From an uncultured Ignavibacteria bacterium (GTDB lineage: Bacteria; Bacteroidota; Ignavibacteria; Ignavibacteriales; Ignavibacteriaceae), in contig CALKUG010000006.1 in assembly GCA_937996765.1 (NCBI GenBank), positions 1 through 42,193 of the forward strand: a stretch of DNA of 42,193 nucleotides, read 5' to 3'. A model generated the notes under the pieces. The model was not told the origin of the DNA, made no database searches, and saw only the letters and a list, made by a program, of their open reading frames with translations. Positions 4,037 to 42,193 of this stretch are shown here, one piece after another (positions within the stretch are counted from its first letter, which is position 1; every line of letters starts with the position of its first letter). A program made the position numbers and the translations under genes.

Positions 4037-4456
4037 TTAATGGGGCAGTTTTTCTTTAAAATAGCTATAAATGTAAGCGCCAACTATTCCTCCTATCAAA
4101 GTGAAAAGAGTTGGCCAAACGCCTCCGCCAATTTGCACATAAATTGGTCCGGGGCAGGTTCCTGTTAATGCCCAACCTATTCCAAAAACTACTCCACCAA
4201 AAACTAAGCCCCAGGAGAAAGTCCTTTTGGGAATCTCAATGGTTTCGTTGTCTAATATAGTTTTAGGCTTAAATTTTTTAATCAACCAAACACCTAACAT
4301 TCCGGTTACGATTGCAGAAAGGAATACTAAGAATATGTGTGATTCTTCGAGTGCGAGCATTTTTTCAATACGTTCGTAATTTGCCAAATCACCCAATACT
4401 ATTGCAGCTCCGGTATAAACACCTAATGCCACGTATGCAATTTGCTTTAGTATCAT
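4037..4456 (-). CDS. YeeE/YedE (Sulf_transp/DUF395) family membrane protein, second half of a split pair
   Basis: Polytopic membrane protein with the GWALTGTCPGPIYVQIG motif. Preferred start is the ATG at 4456 (MILKQIAYVALG), overlapping the upstream stop as ATGA. The track's longer 177-aa form would overlap the upstream gene by 118 nt. Confidence 0.75.
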   Translation of the reverse strand: MILKQIAYVALGVYTGAAIVLGDLANYERIEKMLALEESHIFLVFLSAIVTGMLGVWLIKKFKPKTILDNETIEIPKRTFSWGLVFGGVVFGIGWALTGTCPGPIYVQIGGGVWPTLFTLIGGIVGAYIYSYFKEKLPH

Positions 4457-4920
4457 AGCAAGCCCATTAAAAAGCGTGTTATAATTGCACTGGTGAAGAA
4501 TGAGGCTATTCCGTAAAATGTAACAAACTGAAATGTTGAAAGCCCTGTAATAGCTGTACCTGCAGTACACCCTCCTGCGTATCTTGCACCAAAACCAATT
4601 AATACTCCCCCTCCAAACAAAAGAGCTACACCTTCAATCGAATAAAATGATTCAGGCAAAAAAAAGAAATTTTGATTGGGAAGTAATAATTGAACTATTG
4701 GTGTTGCAAAAACCAATCCGAGCACAAAAGAGAAATTCCAGAGTTGGGGTTTCCAATCATACTGTAAAAATGGGATATTTTTGGTTGGAAATACTGCAGC
4801 GCAAAAGTGTTGGAACGTTGTAGTAATACGAAACATTTTATTGCCAAAAAGTAACAACAATGGAACGATGAGTCCCAGCATTGGTCCCACAATATACCAA
4901 GGCAAAAAAGGTTCGGGCAT
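4453..4920 (-). CDS. YeeE/YedE (Sulf_transp/DUF395) family membrane protein, first half of a split pair
   Basis: Hydrophobic 155-aa protein with the family motif FGARYAGGCTAGTAITG. Starts 2 nt after the upstream NlpC/P60 stop. Confidence 0.8.
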   Translation of the reverse strand: MPEPFLPWYIVGPMLGLIVPLLLLFGNKMFRITTTFQHFCAAVFPTKNIPFLQYDWKPQLWNFSFVLGLVFATPIVQLLLPNQNFFFLPESFYSIEGVALLFGGGVLIGFGARYAGGCTAGTAITGLSTFQFVTFYGIASFFTSAIITRFLMGLL

Positions 4921-4922
4921 AG

Positions 4923-5624
4923 CTACTCGGCTTTATTTGTTAAATAATCATACATTTCAGGTATTCTGCGTCCCCCAATATAACGAGAATCGTAATAGCT
5001 CTCGTTTAATGAGGAAACAATAACACCTTTTTTTGTACTTGCATGTACAAAGTAGTTCCCGTAGAGGTAAATGCCAACATGCCCCGGGTAAGCCCCACGG
5101 CGTGTATTAAAAAACACTAAATCACCAAAACCAAGTTCTTCACGAGAAGTAATAACTTCGCCCTGTGTAAACTGTTCACGTGCGGAGCGGAGCAATTTAC
5201 CACCCATACTCTCTCCATACACACTTAGTGTAAATGCAGAGCAGTCAATGCCTTTAAGCGAATTACCACCGTAACGATATGGGGTATCGAGGTATTTGAT
5301 GATGGTCATTATAAACTTTTCGCGCTTGGTAGCTCTATCCGCATCCATAGTGCTTTCATCTGAGAGAAGCGGTTCAAAAACCATACCTTTTTCGTATGCT
5401 TTTTCTTCGTAACCCTCTGGGTAATCATAGGCCTCTTCTTCTTCTAACAAACTTTCGTCGTTAATAGAAGATGAATCCTCTTGTGTATCAATTACCAAAT
5501 CGTAGCGGGTTTTGATTTCTTCTTCTTCGATGCGAGATGTGCCCGAAAAGCGGTCGGCTGTAGGAGTGCAGCCGGCAAAAAATGCTCCGGCTGCAACTAA
5601 CAATAATAAAAGGATATTCCTCAT
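4923..5624 (-). CDS. NlpC/P60 (C40) cell-wall peptidase lipoprotein
   Basis: Lipobox LLLLLVAAGAFFAGC. Acidic linker. Catalytic core YRYGGNSLKGIDCSAFT...GHVGIYLYGNYFVHAS. Confidence 0.88.
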   Translation of the reverse strand: MRNILLLLLVAAGAFFAGCTPTADRFSGTSRIEEEEIKTRYDLVIDTQEDSSSINDESLLEEEEAYDYPEGYEEKAYEKGMVFEPLLSDESTMDADRATKREKFIMTIIKYLDTPYRYGGNSLKGIDCSAFTLSVYGESMGGKLLRSAREQFTQGEVITSREELGFGDLVFFNTRRGAYPGHVGIYLYGNYFVHASTKKGVIVSSLNESYYDSRYIGGRRIPEMYDYLTNKAE

Positions 5625-5628
5625 GGCA

Positions 5629-6483
5629 CTATCCGAGATAAGCTTTGAGGTTCTTACTCCTTGATGCGTGTCTTAATCTGCGAATTGCTTTTTCTTTAAT
5701 TTGGCGAACACGCTCACGAGTCAAGTTGAATTTATCCCCAATCTCCTCTAAAGTAAGCGAATGCTCGTTGTTTAATCCAAAATAGAGCCTAATAACCTCT
5801 GCCTCACGCTCGGTTAAAGTAGAGAGAGCTCTCTCTATCTCAAGCTTAAGCGATTCGGACATCAAAATAGAATCGGGTGAAGGTTGCTGATCGTTAACAA
5901 GCACGTCAAGCAGTCTGTTATCTTCACCTTGAGCAAATGGAGCATCCATAGAAACGTGTCTGCCGGATATTTTAAGTGTATCGGCAACTTCGTTAACATC
6001 CATTTCCAATTCTGTTGCCAATTCGGCAGCAGAAGGTTCGCGCTCATACTCTTGCTCGAGTGCGCTATAAGCTTTACCAATTTTATTAAGAGCACCCACC
6101 CTGTTTAAAGGGAGGCGTACTATTCTGGATTGCTCAGCTAATGCTTGCAAAATAGACTGACGAATCCACCACACTGCGTACGATATAAATTTAAAACCAC
6201 GAGTCTCATCAAAGCGTTTTGCTGCTTTAATTAAGCCCAAATTTCCTTCGTTGATAAGGTCACCAAGTGAAAGACCCTGATTTTGGTACTGTTTAGCAAC
6301 ACTTACTACAAAGCGTAAATTAGCTTTAGTTAGCGCCTCGAGAGCACGCTGATCACCGGCTTTAATTTTAATAGCCAAATCAATTTCTTGTTCTGTGTTT
6401 AATAAGCTTACTTTGCCTATCTCTTGCAGATACTTATCGAGTGATTGGCTTTCGCGATTAGTGTATTGTTTTGTAATTCTCAC
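5629..6483 (-). CDS. rpoD: RNA polymerase primary sigma factor, short FCB-type sigma-70 (284 aa)
   Basis: [24 protein letters not shown]-terminus. Region 2 [13 protein letters not shown]. Region 4 [32 protein letters not shown] start with GAGG 8-9 nt upstream. Confidence 0.9.
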
Positions 6484-6513: not shown

Positions 6514-6783
6514 TTATAAACGTGAATGCACGGAATCTACTATACCCACAATTGAAGCATCAACTGGGGCTGAGGAGACCGGCAATGGTATTACCGCTTC
6601 TGTTGCAGTTACATAAAGGACTATTTCACCTGCACCCGCACCAACGGTATCTACTGCAATAATTGGATCGCCAATTTTTTGCAACTCTGCGTTTAATGGT
6701 TCAACTATTAGAAACACGAAACTCTCTAAAGATTCGTATTTTTTCGTTGACCATATATTTCCGATTACTTTTCCTAAATACAT
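6514..6783 (-). CDS. EutN/CcmL-family bacterial microcompartment vertex (BMC-P) protein, 89 aa
   Basis: MYLGKVIGNIWSTKK...IIAVDTVGAGAGEIVLYV...PVDASIVGIVD aligns along its full length with EutN/CcmL proteins. Confidence 0.85.
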   Translation of the reverse strand: MYLGKVIGNIWSTKKYESLESFVFLIVEPLNAELQKIGDPIIAVDTVGAGAGEIVLYVTATEAVIPLPVSSAPVDASIVGIVDSVHSRL

Positions 6784-6837
6784 AGGTAATCATCCTAAGG
6801 ATTAAACCTTCGGTTAAAACCGAAGTCATTCGATATG

Positions 6838-7140
6838 TTAAAAATGTTCCGCTCTATCAGTTGTAATTTGCAACGCAGAAACATCAAGTTTATCTACTAT
6901 GCCCATAACAACCGCATCTATGGGTTTATTGTTAGTGAGTGAGGTTTGCCGTGCAGAACTTCCGGTTGCAACCATTACTATCTCACCTTCTCCTGCCCCA
7001 ACGCTATCTACTGCAATAACAAAATTTTCTTTTTGTTTAAGTTGCAAATCAAGCTGCCTTACTATCAGAAACTTTGCTCCTGTGAGGTTTTCATCTTTTT
7101 TTGTTGACCATACAGTTCCAACAACTTTTCCTAAGATCAT
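6838..7140 (-). CDS. EutN/CcmL-family bacterial microcompartment vertex (BMC-P) protein, 100 aa
   Basis: MILGKVVGTVWSTKKDENLTGAKFLIV...VIAVDSVGAGEGEIVMVATGSSARQ...KPIDAVVMGIVD closely resembles CcmL/EutN. GAGG lies 6 nt upstream of the ATG. Confidence 0.9.
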   Translation of the reverse strand: MILGKVVGTVWSTKKDENLTGAKFLIVRQLDLQLKQKENFVIAVDSVGAGEGEIVMVATGSSARQTSLTNNKPIDAVVMGIVDKLDVSALQITTDRAEHF

Positions 7141-7150
7141 TCATTACCTC

Positions 7151-7528
7151 TTATTTAAACTTTTGAATAGCTATATCAGTTCCTTCATATCGAAGGGGAT
7201 GCTGCGTTATTAATACTAAAGAATTCATTCTTGCCAACACAACCATCAGTTCCTCGCGTAACGCGAGTATTTTGCCCGTTTTGCCTACTTCTAAAGCATA
7301 CCTTCCGGGAATGCCAAGTACTTTGAGTGCGGAAAGTAATTGTTTAATCTTTAACTTCTCTGATTTACTTTCAGTAGAGAGCATCAACTCTGTGGCATTA
7401 AGTACAGAAGTGTAACAAACTCCTGAACTCAGTAATTCAACAAATAGCTCGGCCGAATAACTTCCGGTGAGAAATCCGGATAAAACATCTGTTTCAATGA
7501 GGTATTCCGGCACTATTTTCTTTTGCAC
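7151..7528 (-). CDS. PIN-like domain protein (VapC-like, partly degenerate acidic residues)
   Basis: YLIETDVL N-terminal strand, TELM, EELMVVLARMNSLVLIT, C-terminal TDIAIQKF layout typical of PIN. GTG start 2 nt after the upstream stop. Assignment is from motif pattern only. Confidence 0.45.
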   Translation of the reverse strand: MQKKIVPEYLIETDVLSGFLTGSYSAELFVELLSSGVCYTSVLNATELMLSTESKSEKLKIKQLLSALKVLGIPGRYALEVGKTGKILALREELMVVLARMNSLVLITQHPLRYEGTDIAIQKFK

Positions 7529-7530
7529 TA

Positions 7531-7779
7531 TTAAAGCTCTTTATCGGAAATATTAAGCAAGCACGTTCCATATGAGGATACCGCATCCAAAGCGATTTCA
7601 AACGGAATCCCTTGCACTTCGCTGATTTTTTCAGCTACTTGTCGGGTCTTGCTATCTAATACCGGTACTATTTCTATTGAAACATCAACCAATTTTTCTG
7701 CAAGCAATTCGGGATTAAAGTTTTCCTCGCCTTCGGCTATAAACGCGCCATCGGCCTTAAACTTTCCTCGAAATTTCAT
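7531..7779 (-). CDS. Small hypothetical protein, possible VapB-like antitoxin or adaptor (82 aa)
   Basis: The ATG overlaps the deoB stop (ATGA at 7776-7779). The N-terminal KFRGKFKADGAFIAEGEE...VDVSIEIVP pattern resembles small beta-rich PIN-associated antitoxins. No firm family call. Confidence 0.4.
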   Translation of the reverse strand: MKFRGKFKADGAFIAEGEENFNPELLAEKLVDVSIEIVPVLDSKTRQVAEKISEVQGIPFEIALDAVSSYGTCLLNISDKEL

Positions 7780-8945
7780 CGGCCAATCTCATTTAAAAAC
7801 GATGTGCCTTTTAATTTCGTTTCCAGACCAAAAAAATCAGCAACCGTTGAAGCAACGTCTGAGAATGTACTCCTTATTCCTAAATTTTTCCCTAAGTGGG
7901 ATTTTGTATAAGCGAGTATTGGAACATATTCTCTGCTATGGTCGGTACCTGATGTTGTAGGGTCGTTACCATGGTCGGCTGTCAGCAATAACATGTCACC
8001 TTCATCCAACAAAGTTAAAATCTCAGGCAAACGTGAATCAAAATATTCCAAAGCTTTGGCAAACCCAATCGGATCGTTTCTATGGCCATAATAAACGTCG
8101 AAATCAACTAAATTGGCAAATATCAGAGAATTATTGCAATCTTGCATCTGTTGAATAATTGCTTCAATTCCCTCTTCATTAGACTTAGTAAACAGCGGTT
8201 TTGTTATGCCTCGGTGGTTAAATAAATCATTTATTTTTCCGATAGCAACTGTTTCTCTACCACTCTTCTTTACTTCGTCTAAAATGGTTGGATATGGTGC
8301 ATCCAACGAAAAATCTTTTCTGTTTTTAGTACGGGTATAATTGCCATTCCCTCCTAAAAATGGGCGAGCAATTACTCTTCCAATTTTCAGAGGTTCTGTT
8401 AAAACTTGGTTTCTTGTAATTTCACAGATTTGATATAACTCCTCAAGCTTAATAACTTCTTCGTGTGCAGCAATTTGAAATACTGAGTCTGCGGAAGTAT
8501 AAACAATGGGGAACCCTGTTCGTAAGTGCTCATCACCTAACTCTTGAATAATCTCAGTGCCTGAGGCTGCCTTATTACCCAGAAAACCTTTGCATCCGGT
8601 CTTTTCTAAAAAAAGATCCATTATCTCTTTGGTAAAGCCCTGAGGGAAATAACTAAAATCAAAGTCTAAATGTATGCCGCCTAACTCCCAATGCCCTGTT
8701 GTAGAATCTTTACCGGGAGATACTTCGGTCATTTTTCCATAGGAGCCCAATGGTTGGATTACTGCATTTACTCCAATTATGGACTCAATATTACCTAAAC
8801 CTAATTGTGTTAAATTAGGCAAAGAAATATTTACTTGTTTGCAAATATTTTGTAATGTAGCACTACCTTGGTCACCCCAAAGATGAGCATCCGGCAACTC
8901 GCCTATTCCTACTCCGTCTAACACTATAATAATTGCATTATTCAT
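7776..8945 (-). CDS. deoB: Phosphopentomutase
   Basis: Full-length similarity to Drm/DeoB: IIVLDGVGIGELPDA, GKDSTTGHWE, IVYTSADSVFQIAAHEE, FANLVDFD, LLLTADHGNDPT..GTDHSREYVPILAY. Confidence 0.93.
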   Translation of the reverse strand: MNNAIIIVLDGVGIGELPDAHLWGDQGSATLQNICKQVNISLPNLTQLGLGNIESIIGVNAVIQPLGSYGKMTEVSPGKDSTTGHWELGGIHLDFDFSYFPQGFTKEIMDLFLEKTGCKGFLGNKAASGTEIIQELGDEHLRTGFPIVYTSADSVFQIAAHEEVIKLEELYQICEITRNQVLTEPLKIGRVIARPFLGGNGNYTRTKNRKDFSLDAPYPTILDEVKKSGRETVAIGKINDLFNHRGITKPLFTKSNEEGIEAIIQQMQDCNNSLIFANLVDFDVYYGHRNDPIGFAKALEYFDSRLPEILTLLDEGDMLLLTADHGNDPTTSGTDHSREYVPILAYTKSHLGKNLGIRSTFSDVASTVADFFGLETKLKGTSFLNEIGR

Positions 8946-8954
8946 TGTTAAATA

Positions 8955-10865
8955 TCAATATAATACTGAATTACGTTTCTCTGCAGCTCTGCGCACAATC
9001 ATCAAGGTATTCTCATATACAAACCGAGCATCTGTTTGTACTGCGTCTTGAGCGTAAGGAATATAAATTCCTATAGAAACCGTGATATTCACGTTTTGTT
9101 CACCAATTGGCAGAACACTTCTTGCAACACTTTTTCTTAATTTTTCAGCCCAAACAAAACGAGATGTGGGCTCGGTGTTAAACGAATAGATAGCAAAAGT
9201 TTTTTCATCAACTTTTCCAACTATATCATTGTAGCTAATCTCTTTATCAATGGTAGAACTAACAACTTCTATTGCTTTGTCTAAAATCTCATTCCCAAAA
9301 AATGATTCTTGTTCGCTTAAATCATCAATCTGTACCATCGAAAGAGCCCCGGGTTTACCAAGGTCTCTTGATTTTAAAAGCTCAATTGATAACCTTCTTA
9401 AAAACTCTTCGGTCTTTAAAAACTTTGTTTGAATATCAACCGTAATATTGTTTTTAAGTGATGTTATACTTTCAAATGTGTTCATAACAAACGATGTAAG
9501 AGATGCAATACCTTTGAGATATTGAATATCGTCTTTCTTAAAATTCTTTTTCATCAAGGATTCAAAACACAAAACACCATATACCGTGTCTTTGTAAACT
9601 ATGGGTATTGCTATAAATGAGCCCTCAAATCCTAATTCTTCCGATTTGCTAAACCGTAGTACTTGTTTTTCTGCTGTATCATCTATGATAACCAAGGTGT
9701 TTTCTAAAATTGCTTTACCCACAAGAGTGCCACGCAATTCAACACTGTATCCTTCACCGATATACTTGAGTGCAACTTTGTTAATAACCCGATGTGTAAA
9801 ATACTCATGTGCATCATCATCATATCCTACAAAAATATAGGCATCCCAAGGCACATTGGTGAAAATAGACTTTTCACTAAAAGAAAGGAATTCATCGAAG
9901 GAGGCAAACTTTGTCATTGGTTCGAGAACTCTCATCAAACTATCGTACTTGATTTTGTATCCCTCTGGGCCGCTTTTCCTCAGGAATAATTCAAGTGCTG
10001 CGCTAAGACCGTTAGAGAAATGTGCTAATTGAAATATTGTTTCAATTCCAAAAACATCTTGTTCACGTGAATCTACTACAATAACACCAAATACACTTCT
10101 TTCATGAAAAACCGGAACACCTACAAAAGATCTTATTTCTTGAATTGCGGTGTAATATCTTATTGTATCGCCTTCGCCAACCGGTGTTATATTCGAAAGC
10201 AGATTAGGTTCACCTGTAATGATAATCTTACTAAGAATATCATCTTCTAAATCCATTTTTTTTATGTTGTTGATTTGAGAAGAGTTGCTTACAGATGTTA
10301 ATAGTGAAAATTGCTTTGATTCGGGGTCGGTCACAAAAAATGCACAGGTATAAGCCCCAAACAAGTCTTTAATAACACTCAACTGCGTTCTTATATGTTT
10401 TTCAAATTCATCTCTTGCAGGGCCAAATCGTTCCGGGCGTGCTATTTGTATATAACGTTCCAAAAAATCAGGTGGTTTAACAGTGGTCTTCTTTGGTGGA
10501 ATAATAGATTGAACAACTTCGTGGTTTTCTTCAAATTCAGGGGCGGGTTGAGGTACATTGGGTTCATTTGCTTTATTTTCAGTACTACCATCACCACGTC
10601 GGATAATTTCAAAGCCATCATGTGAATCTGATCCAAAGGAGCTACTTTTATAAGGGTTATCAGATTCATCGAGGGGAGAGGTACGTATGTAAGTGGCTTC
10701 ATGTACCTTTTTGTAAATACCGTAAATGAGGAAACTTAGCGAGATAAGGCCAAAAAGGAGGGCAAAATAGCCCAGCAGATCACCCCAAAAGATATACGCT
10801 ATCAAAGTGGACACTACTAAGGTGAAAGAACCAAATGTTATTATGCGCGATGCTGTTTTACTCAC
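8955..10865 (-). CDS. Membrane-anchored GAF-GAF protein with a degenerate GGDEF-like C-terminal domain
   Basis: Two N-terminal TM helices. Two GAF-like blocks (FVGVPVFHERSVFGVIVVDS; SFIAIPIVYKDTVYGVLCFES). The C-terminal cyclase fold has KVDEKTF in place of GGDEF and SYND in place of the RxxD I-site. GTG start. Confidence 0.8.
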   Translation of the reverse strand: MSKTASRIITFGSFTLVVSTLIAYIFWGDLLGYFALLFGLISLSFLIYGIYKKVHEATYIRTSPLDESDNPYKSSSFGSDSHDGFEIIRRGDGSTENKANEPNVPQPAPEFEENHEVVQSIIPPKKTTVKPPDFLERYIQIARPERFGPARDEFEKHIRTQLSVIKDLFGAYTCAFFVTDPESKQFSLLTSVSNSSQINNIKKMDLEDDILSKIIITGEPNLLSNITPVGEGDTIRYYTAIQEIRSFVGVPVFHERSVFGVIVVDSREQDVFGIETIFQLAHFSNGLSAALELFLRKSGPEGYKIKYDSLMRVLEPMTKFASFDEFLSFSEKSIFTNVPWDAYIFVGYDDDAHEYFTHRVINKVALKYIGEGYSVELRGTLVGKAILENTLVIIDDTAEKQVLRFSKSEELGFEGSFIAIPIVYKDTVYGVLCFESLMKKNFKKDDIQYLKGIASLTSFVMNTFESITSLKNNITVDIQTKFLKTEEFLRRLSIELLKSRDLGKPGALSMVQIDDLSEQESFFGNEILDKAIEVVSSTIDKEISYNDIVGKVDEKTFAIYSFNTEPTSRFVWAEKLRKSVARSVLPIGEQNVNITVSIGIYIPYAQDAVQTDARFVYENTLMIVRRAAEKRNSVLY

Positions 10866-10895
10866 CGTTTTTCGTTTGTTTTAATTTAAACTTTA

Positions 10896-10924
10896 AAAAT
10901 ATGTAGCTGTTCACTCTAATTCAA
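10896..10924 (-). promoter_or_regulatory. Candidate sigma-70 promoter upstream of the GAF/GGDEF-like gene
   Basis: Minus strand TTGAAT (10919-10924), 17-nt spacer, TATTTT (10896-10901), in the 78-nt gap after engB. Confidence 0.3.
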
Positions 10925-10943
10925 TAGAGCAAGAGCTAATTCG

Positions 10944-11528
10944 CTAATAATTCAGTAATTCTTTAAGAGTTCTCACTATTTCTTTTTTACCCGTACCCTT
11001 AATTGACGAATAGGTGAATAAATTTTTTTTATACACCAATTCGGGGAAGTCATTACAAACCGAGCGAATACTTTCGCTAATTTCCGTTTGTTTAGCTTTA
11101 TCGGCCTTTGTAAGAATAGTTATTGAGGGAATGCCAAGCTGATTGATAAATTTGTGAAAAAGCTTATCGTTTTCTTGTACTTCGTGACGAGCATCAATAA
11201 AATGTACCGCTAAATGCAATTTATCAGTAAAAGCGATGTATTCATCGATAAGTTTCGACCACTTTTCCCGCTCTTTTTTGCTAACACTTGCATATCCATA
11301 GCCGGGTAAATCAATAAGATATATTTTGTTATCTACTAAATAGTAGTTAAGTGTGCGTGTTTTGCCCGGATGTGAGCTAATTTTCGCAACTTCTTTTGAA
11401 AACACTGAATTGATAAAAGAGGATTTACCTACATTAGACCTACCACAGAGAATAACTTCAGGGTAGCGAAGTTTGGGGATGTCTTTAATAAATCCGACTG
11501 AGCTTATAAATTCTATGGTTTTAAACAT
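10944..11528 (-). CDS. engB: Ribosome-biogenesis GTPase EngB/YihA/YsxC
   Basis: P-loop GRSNVGKSSFIN, DLPGYGYA, TKADK G4 motif, about 194 aa. Confidence 0.9.
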   Translation of the reverse strand: MFKTIEFISSVGFIKDIPKLRYPEVILCGRSNVGKSSFINSVFSKEVAKISSHPGKTRTLNYYLVDNKIYLIDLPGYGYASVSKKEREKWSKLIDEYIAFTDKLHLAVHFIDARHEVQENDKLFHKFINQLGIPSITILTKADKAKQTEISESIRSVCNDFPELVYKKNLFTYSSIKGTGKKEIVRTLKELLNY

Positions 11529-11530
11529 AA

Positions 11531-11562
11531 GAAAAAAGAGTAACCGGTTTCCCGATTACTCT
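11531..11562 (-). terminator. Intrinsic terminator after rplQ (end of the alpha operon)
   Basis: Minus strand agagtaatcgg-gaaa-ccggttactct (one mismatch) followed by TTTTT. The stem ends 8 nt before the engB ATG. Confidence 0.6.
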
Positions 11563-11588
11563 TCTCCAAAATATAGGATGTAAAAAAA

Positions 11589-18235: not shown

Positions 18236-18272
18236 TGTTTCTCCAATGAAAAAAATATAATTTGTTTATTTG

Positions 18273-18343
18273 CTGCCCGAGGAAGATTCGAACTTCCACA
18301 TACGGCTCCAAAGGCCGCTGTCCTACCGTTAGACGATCGGGCA
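18273..18343 (-). tRNA. tRNA-Gln (anticodon UUG), CCA not encoded, embedded in the spc operon
   Basis: Hand-folded cloverleaf: acceptor UGCCCGA/UCGGGCA (U1-A72), D arm GUCU-AACGGUA-GGAC, anticodon arm GCGGC-CUUUGGA-GCCGU, 4-nt variable loop, T arm GGAAG-UUCGAAU-CUUCC, discriminator G. Confidence 0.88.
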
Positions 18344-42140: not shown

Positions 42141-42193
42141 CACGGCAGGAGGGACTCGAACCCCCAACCTGCGGTTTTGGAGACCGCTGCTCT
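42141..42193 (-). tRNA. tRNA-Trp (anticodon CCA), 5' part cut by the window edge
   Basis: Reverse complement gives anticodon arm GCGGT-CTCCAAA-ACCGC, T arm GGGGG-TTCGAGT-CCCTC, acceptor 3' strand CTGCCGT + G. This is the classical position upstream of secE-nusG. Confidence 0.85.

Follow-up and report, generated by a model that had tools for sequence, protein, structure and literature searches.

Tandem vertex-protein genes beside deoB in an Ignavibacteria genome as probable satellite genes of a FRAG1-type microcompartment

What are two genes for vertex pentamers of a bacterial microcompartment (BMC) doing between deoB and the gene for the primary sigma factor? The question is raised by a 42,193-nucleotide contig from an uncultured Ignavibacteria bacterium of the family Ignavibacteriaceae (GenBank CALKUG010000006.1, assembly GCA_937996765.1), which we call the window in its full length. 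In it, two adjacent open reading frames (ORFs) of the EutN/CcmL or BMC-P type, here named EutN-A and EutN-B, follow deoB, a small gene termed orf82, and a PIN-like gene. A preliminary description of this DNA had offered two explanations, namely that deoB links a satellite vertex locus to a distant microcompartment of the sugar phosphate utilization (SPU) kind, or that the EutN fold is used without a shell, together with the two small neighboring proteins. From the searches and comparisons reported here, we favor, with a probability of about 0.75, the reading that EutN-A and EutN-B are satellite vertex genes of a FRAG1-type fragmented BMC tied to deoxyribose phosphate.

Genes of this kind are already known, and the pair in the window is a fresh example of FRAG1 satellite BMC-P genes. 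The shell genes of FRAG microcompartments are spread over as many as six places in the genome (Sutter et al. 2021, Nat Commun 12:3809, PMC8217296). The same catalog describes FRAG1 from 57 loci as "shell protein only" and as most prominent in Ignavibacteria, with a BMC-P triplet, two BMC-H proteins and, in 24 of the 57 loci, a PduS/T pair; its taxa are Ignavibacteria, Kryptonia, Bacteroidetes, Chlorobi, and Rhodothermaeota (PMC8217296).

On the reading we favor, EutN-A and EutN-B would be two of the three paralogous BMC-P genes of such a microcompartment, and elsewhere on the chromosome would be the genes for the third BMC-P, for one BMC-H of standard form and another extended at its C terminus and, often, for PduS and PduT as a pair. 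The pentamers would close the vertices of a shell made from the distant BMC-H and BMC-T proteins. DeoB would make deoxyribose 5-phosphate as the substrate of an encapsulated deoxyribose-phosphate aldolase (DERA), as in SPU microcompartments, and orf82 and the PIN gene would be a VapBC-like accessory and not a core part.

Both EutN ORFs encode BMC-P family proteins

EutN-A (6838-7140, minus strand, 100 aa) and EutN-B (6514-6783, minus strand, 89 aa) had been recognized by their EutN/CcmL signature, and this assignment was borne out when both matched PF03319 over the whole model (1-83/83), with 109.7 and 94.4 bits, respectively, at a gathering cut-off of 25 bits. The two proteins are 45% identical to each other. 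For both, the best solved relatives are microcompartment pentamers; the shell pentamer of Haliangium ochraceum (HO), 5V74 / 6MZX, was matched with E = 5e-22 by EutN-A and E = 4e-12 by EutN-B, and further structural relatives are GrpN (4I7A) and CcmL structures. The alignment of EutN-A with 5V74 runs over 87 residues free of gaps, and the 5V74 pentamer occupies the vertices of the solved HO shell. The motifs common to shell-forming pentamers are intact in the pair. By these sequence comparisons, the two ORFs are confirmed as genuine microcompartment vertex genes.

EutN-A matches the BMC-P type called green or viridian3. EutN-B has the "EAVIP" type of motif and is presumably the grey or orange member of the BMC-P triplet; its homologs take the middle position in the BMC-H-P-P-P arrays of other phyla. 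In the portions of the catalog trees covered here, entries labeled "FRAG1 (sat)" include Ignavibacteria BMC-P proteins of 98 and 90 aa in clade viridian3, which there also contains main-locus pentamers of HO and SPU3, together with a 229-aa BMC-H and a 181-aa PduT from Ignavibacteria (PMC8217296). The comparison with the cataloged BMC-P proteins is one of length, taxon, clade neighbors, and isolation, the supplement containing no sequences and the trees showing representatives; in each of these respects the window pair agrees with FRAG1.

The pair is conserved across Ignavibacteria

EutN-A has 3,634 database relatives. Among the best 120, which are 70-97% identical, every one with a named source came from an Ignavibacteria-type metagenome-assembled genome (MAG), one of these being labeled Chlorobiaceae. 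The close homologs belong to Ignavibacteria or Ignavibacteriaceae MAGs, some of which are labeled Bacteroidetes or Chlorobiaceae. When one genome per species was scanned with EutN-A, the result was 80 orthologous loci without a paralog; the loci came from Ignavibacteria-like MAGs, and three were on complete or chromosome-scale records.

The gene order was mapped by tblastn. All of the 80 loci whose sequence reaches that far have deoB, an optional insert, EutN-A, and EutN-B in this order, and the wider order EngB-GGDEF-deoB-[optional insert]-A-B-rpoD-NlpC is present in all but one (L042, with no rpoD match). The same arrangement occurs in 23 further metagenome loci, for about 100 Ignavibacteria-type loci in total. 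In the order deoB-orf82-PIN-eutN-eutN-rpoD seen in the window, the core is thus conserved in the 80 species genomes, with orf82 and PIN optional.

Median identity to the window protein was 87% for RpoD, 78% for EutN-A (80 species), 67% for EutN-B, 64% for DeoB, 48% for EngB, 45% for NlpC, and 36% for the GGDEF protein. That both EutN proteins are better conserved than DeoB, EngB, NlpC, and the GGDEF protein indicates strong constraint by purifying selection, and not a relic. We had considered whether the pair might be the decaying remnant of a lost microcompartment locus, as could be imagined from the lack of nearby shell genes. The ORFs are intact and at full length in more than 100 loci and have changed less than their neighbor deoB, and these conservation data effectively refute decay, to which we give next to no probability.

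The distance from EutN-B to rpoD is also held short, with a median of 15 nt and an interquartile range of 11-18 nt in 98 loci, and in the window the gap holds no terminator-like site. A gap this short across the group suggests that the housekeeping sigma factor is probably transcribed together with the vertex genes; judged by spacing, such co-transcription is likely. The rpoD orthologs carry the Joint Genome Institute (JGI) name "RNA polymerase primary sigma factor." Since the pair stands in a tight, co-directional block with deoB and rpoD, it is probably expressed along with housekeeping genes and not as a substrate-induced catabolic operon.

Shell and cargo genes are absent from the neighborhood

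The absence of shell and cargo genes from the 42 kb, as initially described, holds true locally. Searches of the window by tblastn gave no match with PduA, EutM, and CcmK2, and none with BMC-H, extended BMC-H, PduS, PduT, aldehyde dehydrogenase (AldDh), phosphotransacylase (PTAC), RpiB, and DERA taken from other loci; BMC-T was likewise not found in the window. No BMC-H gene lies within 10 kb to either side in the 80 species-genome loci, and over the same distance in these and the 23 metagenome loci there were no shell proteins or other core enzymes, bar a DERA in the metagenome locus L100. A query with a presumed third paralog (P0214) led to Zixibacteria and not to Ignavibacteria. The best 120 matches to a Zixibacteria PduT came from Zixibacteria, Calditrichaeota, and other lineages, with no 181-aa Ignavibacteria PduT among them. 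In contig and cluster look-ups, other shell genes were never on a contig or assembly shared with the EutN pair.

The pair can accordingly be called an orphan with respect to its neighborhood, but not as a kind, since about 100 Ignavibacteria-type loci share the block and its type is cataloged as FRAG1 (sat). That a shell exists is argued from the catalog, where FRAG1 genomes are said to have BMC-H (PMC8217296), and from the co-location of relatives with BMC-H in other phyla, described below.

A distant shell might also be of another type. Satellite loci supplying shell paralogs are common, and Ignavibacteria may carry main loci of the MIC4 / PVM-like type, as does Melioribacter roseus (PMC8217296), so that the pair could provide extra vertex proteins for a compact BMC of that sort and not for a FRAG1 shell. 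We consider this unlikely. The catalog, in the tree portions covered here, puts the 98-aa Ignavibacteria BMC-P in FRAG1; M. roseus has its own BMC-P within MIC4; and the pair was in all 80 genomes found, whereas MIC4 numbers 15 loci in total (PMC8217296).

Relatives in other phyla adjoin BMC-H

An alignment of B-type pentamers was used as the query for a metagenome scan, which returned 80 loci. In 44 of these, BMC-H is directly beside three BMC-P genes, and in 2 it is beside fewer than three; 23 have the Ignavibacteria-type arrangement, 2 have deoB-A-B without an adjacent rpoD, and 9 are arranged otherwise. Most of the 44 are ordered H, A-like, B-like, C-like. The A and B types therefore adjoin BMC-H in 46 of the 80 loci, in other phyla, which lends independent support to a role as shell genes.

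The third (C-type) paralog was found only in other phyla. It occurs in loci of the form BMC-H(ext)-BMC-P-PduS-PduT, one from Zixibacteria (L086) and one from a different lineage (L091), and its company of an extended BMC-H and PduS/T matches the FRAG description. Both of these loci (L086, 9406-13402; L091, 7701-11101) are flanked by an ACT-domain protein and a DUF711 protein, and the C-terminal tail of the extended BMC-H of L086 is basic and, by eye, predicted to be helical. Lone PduS-PduT pairs with no other shell gene within 10 kb were seen in three additional lineages, represented by L088 (G+C fraction 0.62), L095, and L176; isolated pairs of this kind are a further face of locus fragmentation.

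These relatives bear on the second of the original explanations, in which the EutN fold would function without a shell, perhaps tied to rpoD or working with orf82 and the PIN protein. Such a function could be entertained because no BMC-H has been demonstrated in the source genome and because the pair is universal, highly conserved, and so close to the primary sigma factor gene. The same features (presence in every recovered genome, conservation above that of deoB, the median of 15 nt to rpoD, and no demonstrated BMC-H) underlie the related idea that the paralogs have a role beyond or other than shell capping, for example a dual role coupled to housekeeping transcription. The shell-free function did not stand up well to the evidence: A and B homologs lie beside BMC-H in the 46 loci, the catalog gives FRAG1 genomes BMC-H, EutN-A aligns with the vertex pentamer 5V74 and the motifs of shell-forming pentamers are kept, adjacency to rpoD is lost in three metagenome loci (L117, L121, and L116), and about two thirds of the loci have neither orf82 nor PIN. 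We regard it as very improbable, and we give the dual role equally little credence.

The deoB neighbor and a link to deoxyribose phosphate

The deoB gene (7776-8945, minus strand) encodes a phosphopentomutase matching NF003766 with 531.8 bits (cut-off 256) and TIGR01696 with 478 bits. Its start differs between gene callers; two assemblies have a 382-aa product and one has 389 aa, and the longer form leaves just 9 nt to the GGDEF gene. It is directly upstream of the EutN pair in all 80 species genomes. In SPU microcompartments, deoB supplies the presumed substrate, and DERA has been shown to be active on deoxyribose 5-phosphate (PMC11585597).

The deoB-A-B unit was also kept in two metagenome loci with unrelated flanks, with 0-12 nt between deoB and EutN-A. 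In L121 (G+C fraction 0.58), the genes leading up to and including the pair are holA, an extracytoplasmic function (ECF) sigma factor, a hypothetical gene, deoB, A, and B, with the start of A overlapped by the stop of deoB, and B is followed by Ham1, a class-V aminotransferase (IscS/NifS-type), an MnmA-type tRNA methyltransferase, and PanB/PanC. In L117 (G+C fraction 0.54), a hypothetical gene precedes deoB, A, and B; PCMT, CdaA, and FolP come next on the other strand, and rpoD is 4.5 kb away.

A DERA gene stands near the pair in L100, a locus assigned to Ignavibacteriales through the source name of its rpoD cluster and having the order GGDEF-deoB-A-B-rpoD-NlpC-def-fmt-DERA. The gene (10645-11511) is a 288-aa ORF about 3.5 kb downstream of the pair and about 1.8 kb past NlpC. 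The N-terminal extension of its product is 70 residues long and opens with MDKQTILRLIEQVLNE, an amphipathic stretch. All BMC-associated DERAs are reported to carry about 70 extra residues of this kind, comprising an amphipathic helix and two strands; other DERAs lack them, and annotations often overlook them (SPU paper, Commun Biol 2024, PMC11585597). Gene windows read in frame had a coding score of 16.2 ± 5.0 and off-frame windows one of -21.5 ± 7.7; the L100 extension, with 13.4 in frame, scores as coding. The NCBI annotation of this DERA is 218 aa long, from a mis-called start codon, and the extension is therefore hidden in the public record.

Several points weigh against the reading we favor. 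BMC-H, the third BMC-P, and PduS/T were not located in this organism or in any single genome carrying the pair. A DERA lies within 10 kb in just one of about 110 related loci, L116 has the order HtrA-A-B-Ham1, and L101 is without deoB by the pair. Adjacency within Ignavibacteria carries little functional weight because the whole region is syntenic. The catalog reports no enzymes for FRAG1 and no encapsulation-peptide matches in FRAG genomes (PMC8217296), and the co-transcription with deoB and rpoD is judged from gene spacing.

Much of this equally suits another view, in which the pair is a FRAG1-type satellite whose neighbor deoB reflects inherited gene order, the organelle being unrelated to deoxyribose phosphate. 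It sits easily with the synteny of the EngB-to-NlpC block throughout Ignavibacteria, with the HtrA gene that replaces deoB in L116, with L101, with the single nearby DERA, and with the lack of cataloged enzymes or encapsulation peptides. It fits less well with L117 and L121, where deoB-A-B survives and all other neighbors are different, with the BMC-type extension of the L100 DERA, and with the clade that EutN-A has in common with SPU3 and HO main loci in the tree portions covered. We hold this view to be possible but doubtful. The persistence of deoB-P-P in L117 and L121, taken with an SPU-type extension on the L100 DERA, adds support for the tie to deoB.

The satellite locus proposed at the outset, tied through deoB to a distal SPU-like BMC, thus gained from the fit to FRAG1 (sat), from L117 and L121, and from the L100 DERA, but it is no new phenomenon. 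What is new are modest leads: the deoB-P-P unit stays together in two lineages with unrelated flanks, a hidden extended DERA occurs in the order, and the pair appears tightly coupled to rpoD. As a lead to the function of FRAG1, the vertex pair travels with deoB even among otherwise different neighbors, and in at least one member of the order the DERA bears the extension diagnostic of encapsulated SPU aldolases. From the deoB link and this DERA, we lean, at roughly even odds, toward FRAG1 being a dispersed metabolosome of the SPU kind. If so, FRAG1 would be a dispersed deoxyribose-phosphate, or DNA-scavenging, metabolosome in widespread sediment and wastewater bacteria, with part of its shell expressed along with the housekeeping sigma factor. 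As it stands, the locus is one more example of a cataloged oddity, FRAG1, with its scattered shell genes.

orf82 and the PIN gene form an optional module

Between deoB and EutN-A are orf82 (7531-7779, minus strand), which belongs to an uncharacterized small-protein family, and the PIN-like (VapC-like) gene (7151-7528, minus strand). The PIN protein of the window matches PF01850 weakly, with E = 0.006 and under the gathering score; all 10 aligned members of its family match PF01850, the best with E = 3.7e-10. A profile of the family matches the VapC structure 7BY2 over nearly its full length with E = 0.03. Among the acidic sites, D14 and E47 are invariant, D92 is nearly so (it is E in the window copy), and the fourth is variable. 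A single-sequence structure model of the PIN protein had a predicted local distance difference test (pLDDT) score of 46, too poor for use.

Small proteins of the orf82 family are always encoded in company with PIN, at a place resembling that of an antitoxin. Among the 22 other loci with a PIN gene, 19 have a small ORF of 46-104 aa upstream of it; L075 and L083 lack one or have one shorter than 40 aa, and the 46-aa one of L077 is doubtful. The orf82 family has a conserved C-terminal motif, I..VQ.[IL]P..V. For orf82, there was no Pfam, NCBIfam, or PADLOC match and no significant PHROG match (one was marginal, E 0.24), and small proteins of its type matched no antitoxin family. The N-terminal half of the family gave weak profile matches to the KH type-2 / uS3 N-terminal domain (E = 4e-4 to 0.05, many of them near 0.05), and this KH-like match is a possible RNA-binding lead for a partner of the PIN protein. 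Neither the PIN protein nor the EutN ORFs matched anything significant in the defense-system and phage libraries; with no significant match there for PIN, orf82, or the EutN ORFs, a defense-island reading was rejected.

Of 97 loci, 32 carry the PIN module, and these group in several clades of the rpoD tree; orf82 and PIN are missing from L001 and from about two thirds of the related loci. This distribution fits old residence with repeated loss. We read orf82 and PIN as a VapBC-like accessory pair that is probably not a partner of the EutN proteins. As in VapBC type II toxin-antitoxin systems, a small upstream gene is followed after a 2-nt gap by a PIN-domain gene of about 125 aa, and PF01850 is matched across the family along with the weak VapC profile match. 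Toxin-antitoxin pairs are usually mobile, whereas this module has kept a single place on the chromosome throughout several clades. In further contrast to VapBC, the PIN family is without a conserved fourth acidic catalytic residue and has E as the third in the window copy, and orf82/PIN has no PADLOC or antitoxin-family match.

Genomic context of the block

The block reads, on the minus strand, EngB (10944-11528), a GAF-GGDEF protein gene (8955-10865; Pfam GAF_2, GAF, and GGDEF), deoB, orf82, the PIN-like gene, EutN-A, EutN-B, a primary sigma factor gene (5629-6483), and an NlpC/P60 peptidase gene (4923-5624). The sigma factor is RpoD-type, of the short Fibrobacteres-Chlorobi-Bacteroidetes (FCB) form, with Sigma70 r1.2, r2, r3, and r4. 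The GGDEF gene is 9 nt from deoB. The tight spacing first reported was exact by the ORF coordinates, with a 4-nt ATGA overlap between deoB and orf82, 2 nt from there to the PIN gene, 10 nt to EutN-A, 54 nt to EutN-B, and 30 nt to the sigma factor gene.

EngB heads this co-directional block, which comes after the ribosomal-protein/rpoA/rplQ cluster and a strong terminator-like hairpin behind rplQ (11532-11567, read 11567-11532 on the minus strand; a 16-bp stem and then a T-run). The hairpin is likely to be the upstream boundary of an EngB-to-rpoD transcription block. A sigma-70 promoter scan gave no excess over shuffled sequence and is uninformative on internal promoters, Bacteroidota-type promoters being outside its scope. 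A search of the window with Rfam revealed no regulatory RNA. The spacer that separates EutN-A from EutN-B (6784-6840), the length of which is very variable among relatives, contains a small hairpin, CUUCGG....CCGAAG, that was set aside as a notable element because its energy is not significant (z = -1.3).

After NlpC on the same strand are two genes of the sulfur-transport family (PF04143 / DUF6691; 4037-4920), the ORFs of which share about 118 nt; the downstream one probably has a mis-set start. On the other side, 11589-42193 holds the core ribosomal-protein/rpoA/secY block, annotated by Pfam to about 17.5 kb; beyond this, EF-Tu, EF-G, and rpoBC are presumably encoded, to judge from ORF sizes alone. 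A tRNA-Gln is located at 18272-18343 and a cut-off tRNA at 42141-42193. Given these ribosomal and other core surroundings, the EutN pair is in a core, vertically inherited region.

Comparison with SPU, HO, and FRAG1 microcompartments

The likeness to SPU lies in a presumed BMC-P triplet with a green member of the EutN-A clade, in DeoB as the supplier of deoxyribose 5-phosphate, and in the L100 contig from a related Ignavibacteriales, whose DERA has the N-terminal extension of about 70 aa. SPU loci are, in contrast, compact, with DERA, RpiB, AldDh, and shell genes together, and in the window and within 10 kb in about 110 loci none of these was present, bar the L100 DERA. An example of the compact form is L126 (Ca. 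Muiribacteriota), an SPU locus with PTAC, AldDh, PduS/T, RpiB, and a B-type pentamer. There, no PF01791 match was found in the part of the contig examined; a 353-aa DUF4899 protein (8202-9263) adjoins RpiB at the place where DERA would be expected. Of the extended DERA (PF01791) and the RpiB (PF02502) expected in an SPU locus, neither is in the window. The pair is therefore not filed as SPU, though its function may be SPU-like.

In HO, BMC-H, BMC-T, and AldDh are together in a clear main locus, and the satellite pair sits with an aldolase and not with deoB and rpoD. It resembles the present case in that two BMC-P paralogs are encoded away from the main locus, in the HO type I satellite locus, and in that the HO pentamer 5V74 is the closest solved relative of EutN-A. 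The proposed cargo of HO includes a DeoC-type aldolase that is encoded elsewhere and has an encapsulation-peptide-like extension (PMC8217296).

The closest likeness in kind is to FRAG1. The constant deoB and rpoD neighbors and the small-protein/PIN module are differences, being absent from the catalog text, and its supplement contains neither "pfam01676" nor "mutase"; in other FRAG types, DeoC adjoins BMC-P (FRAG3) or is found with RpiB (FRAG5) (PMC8217296). In agreement with FRAG1, the window pair comes from the same taxon group and is dispersed, its BMC-P genes standing away from BMC-H and recognized BMC enzymes, and two distinct paralogs are seen, with EutN-A of the green viridian3 type. 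The resemblance extends to BMC-P lengths of 90-98 aa and the green viridian3 clade, and would include the triplet logic of green, grey, and orange members.

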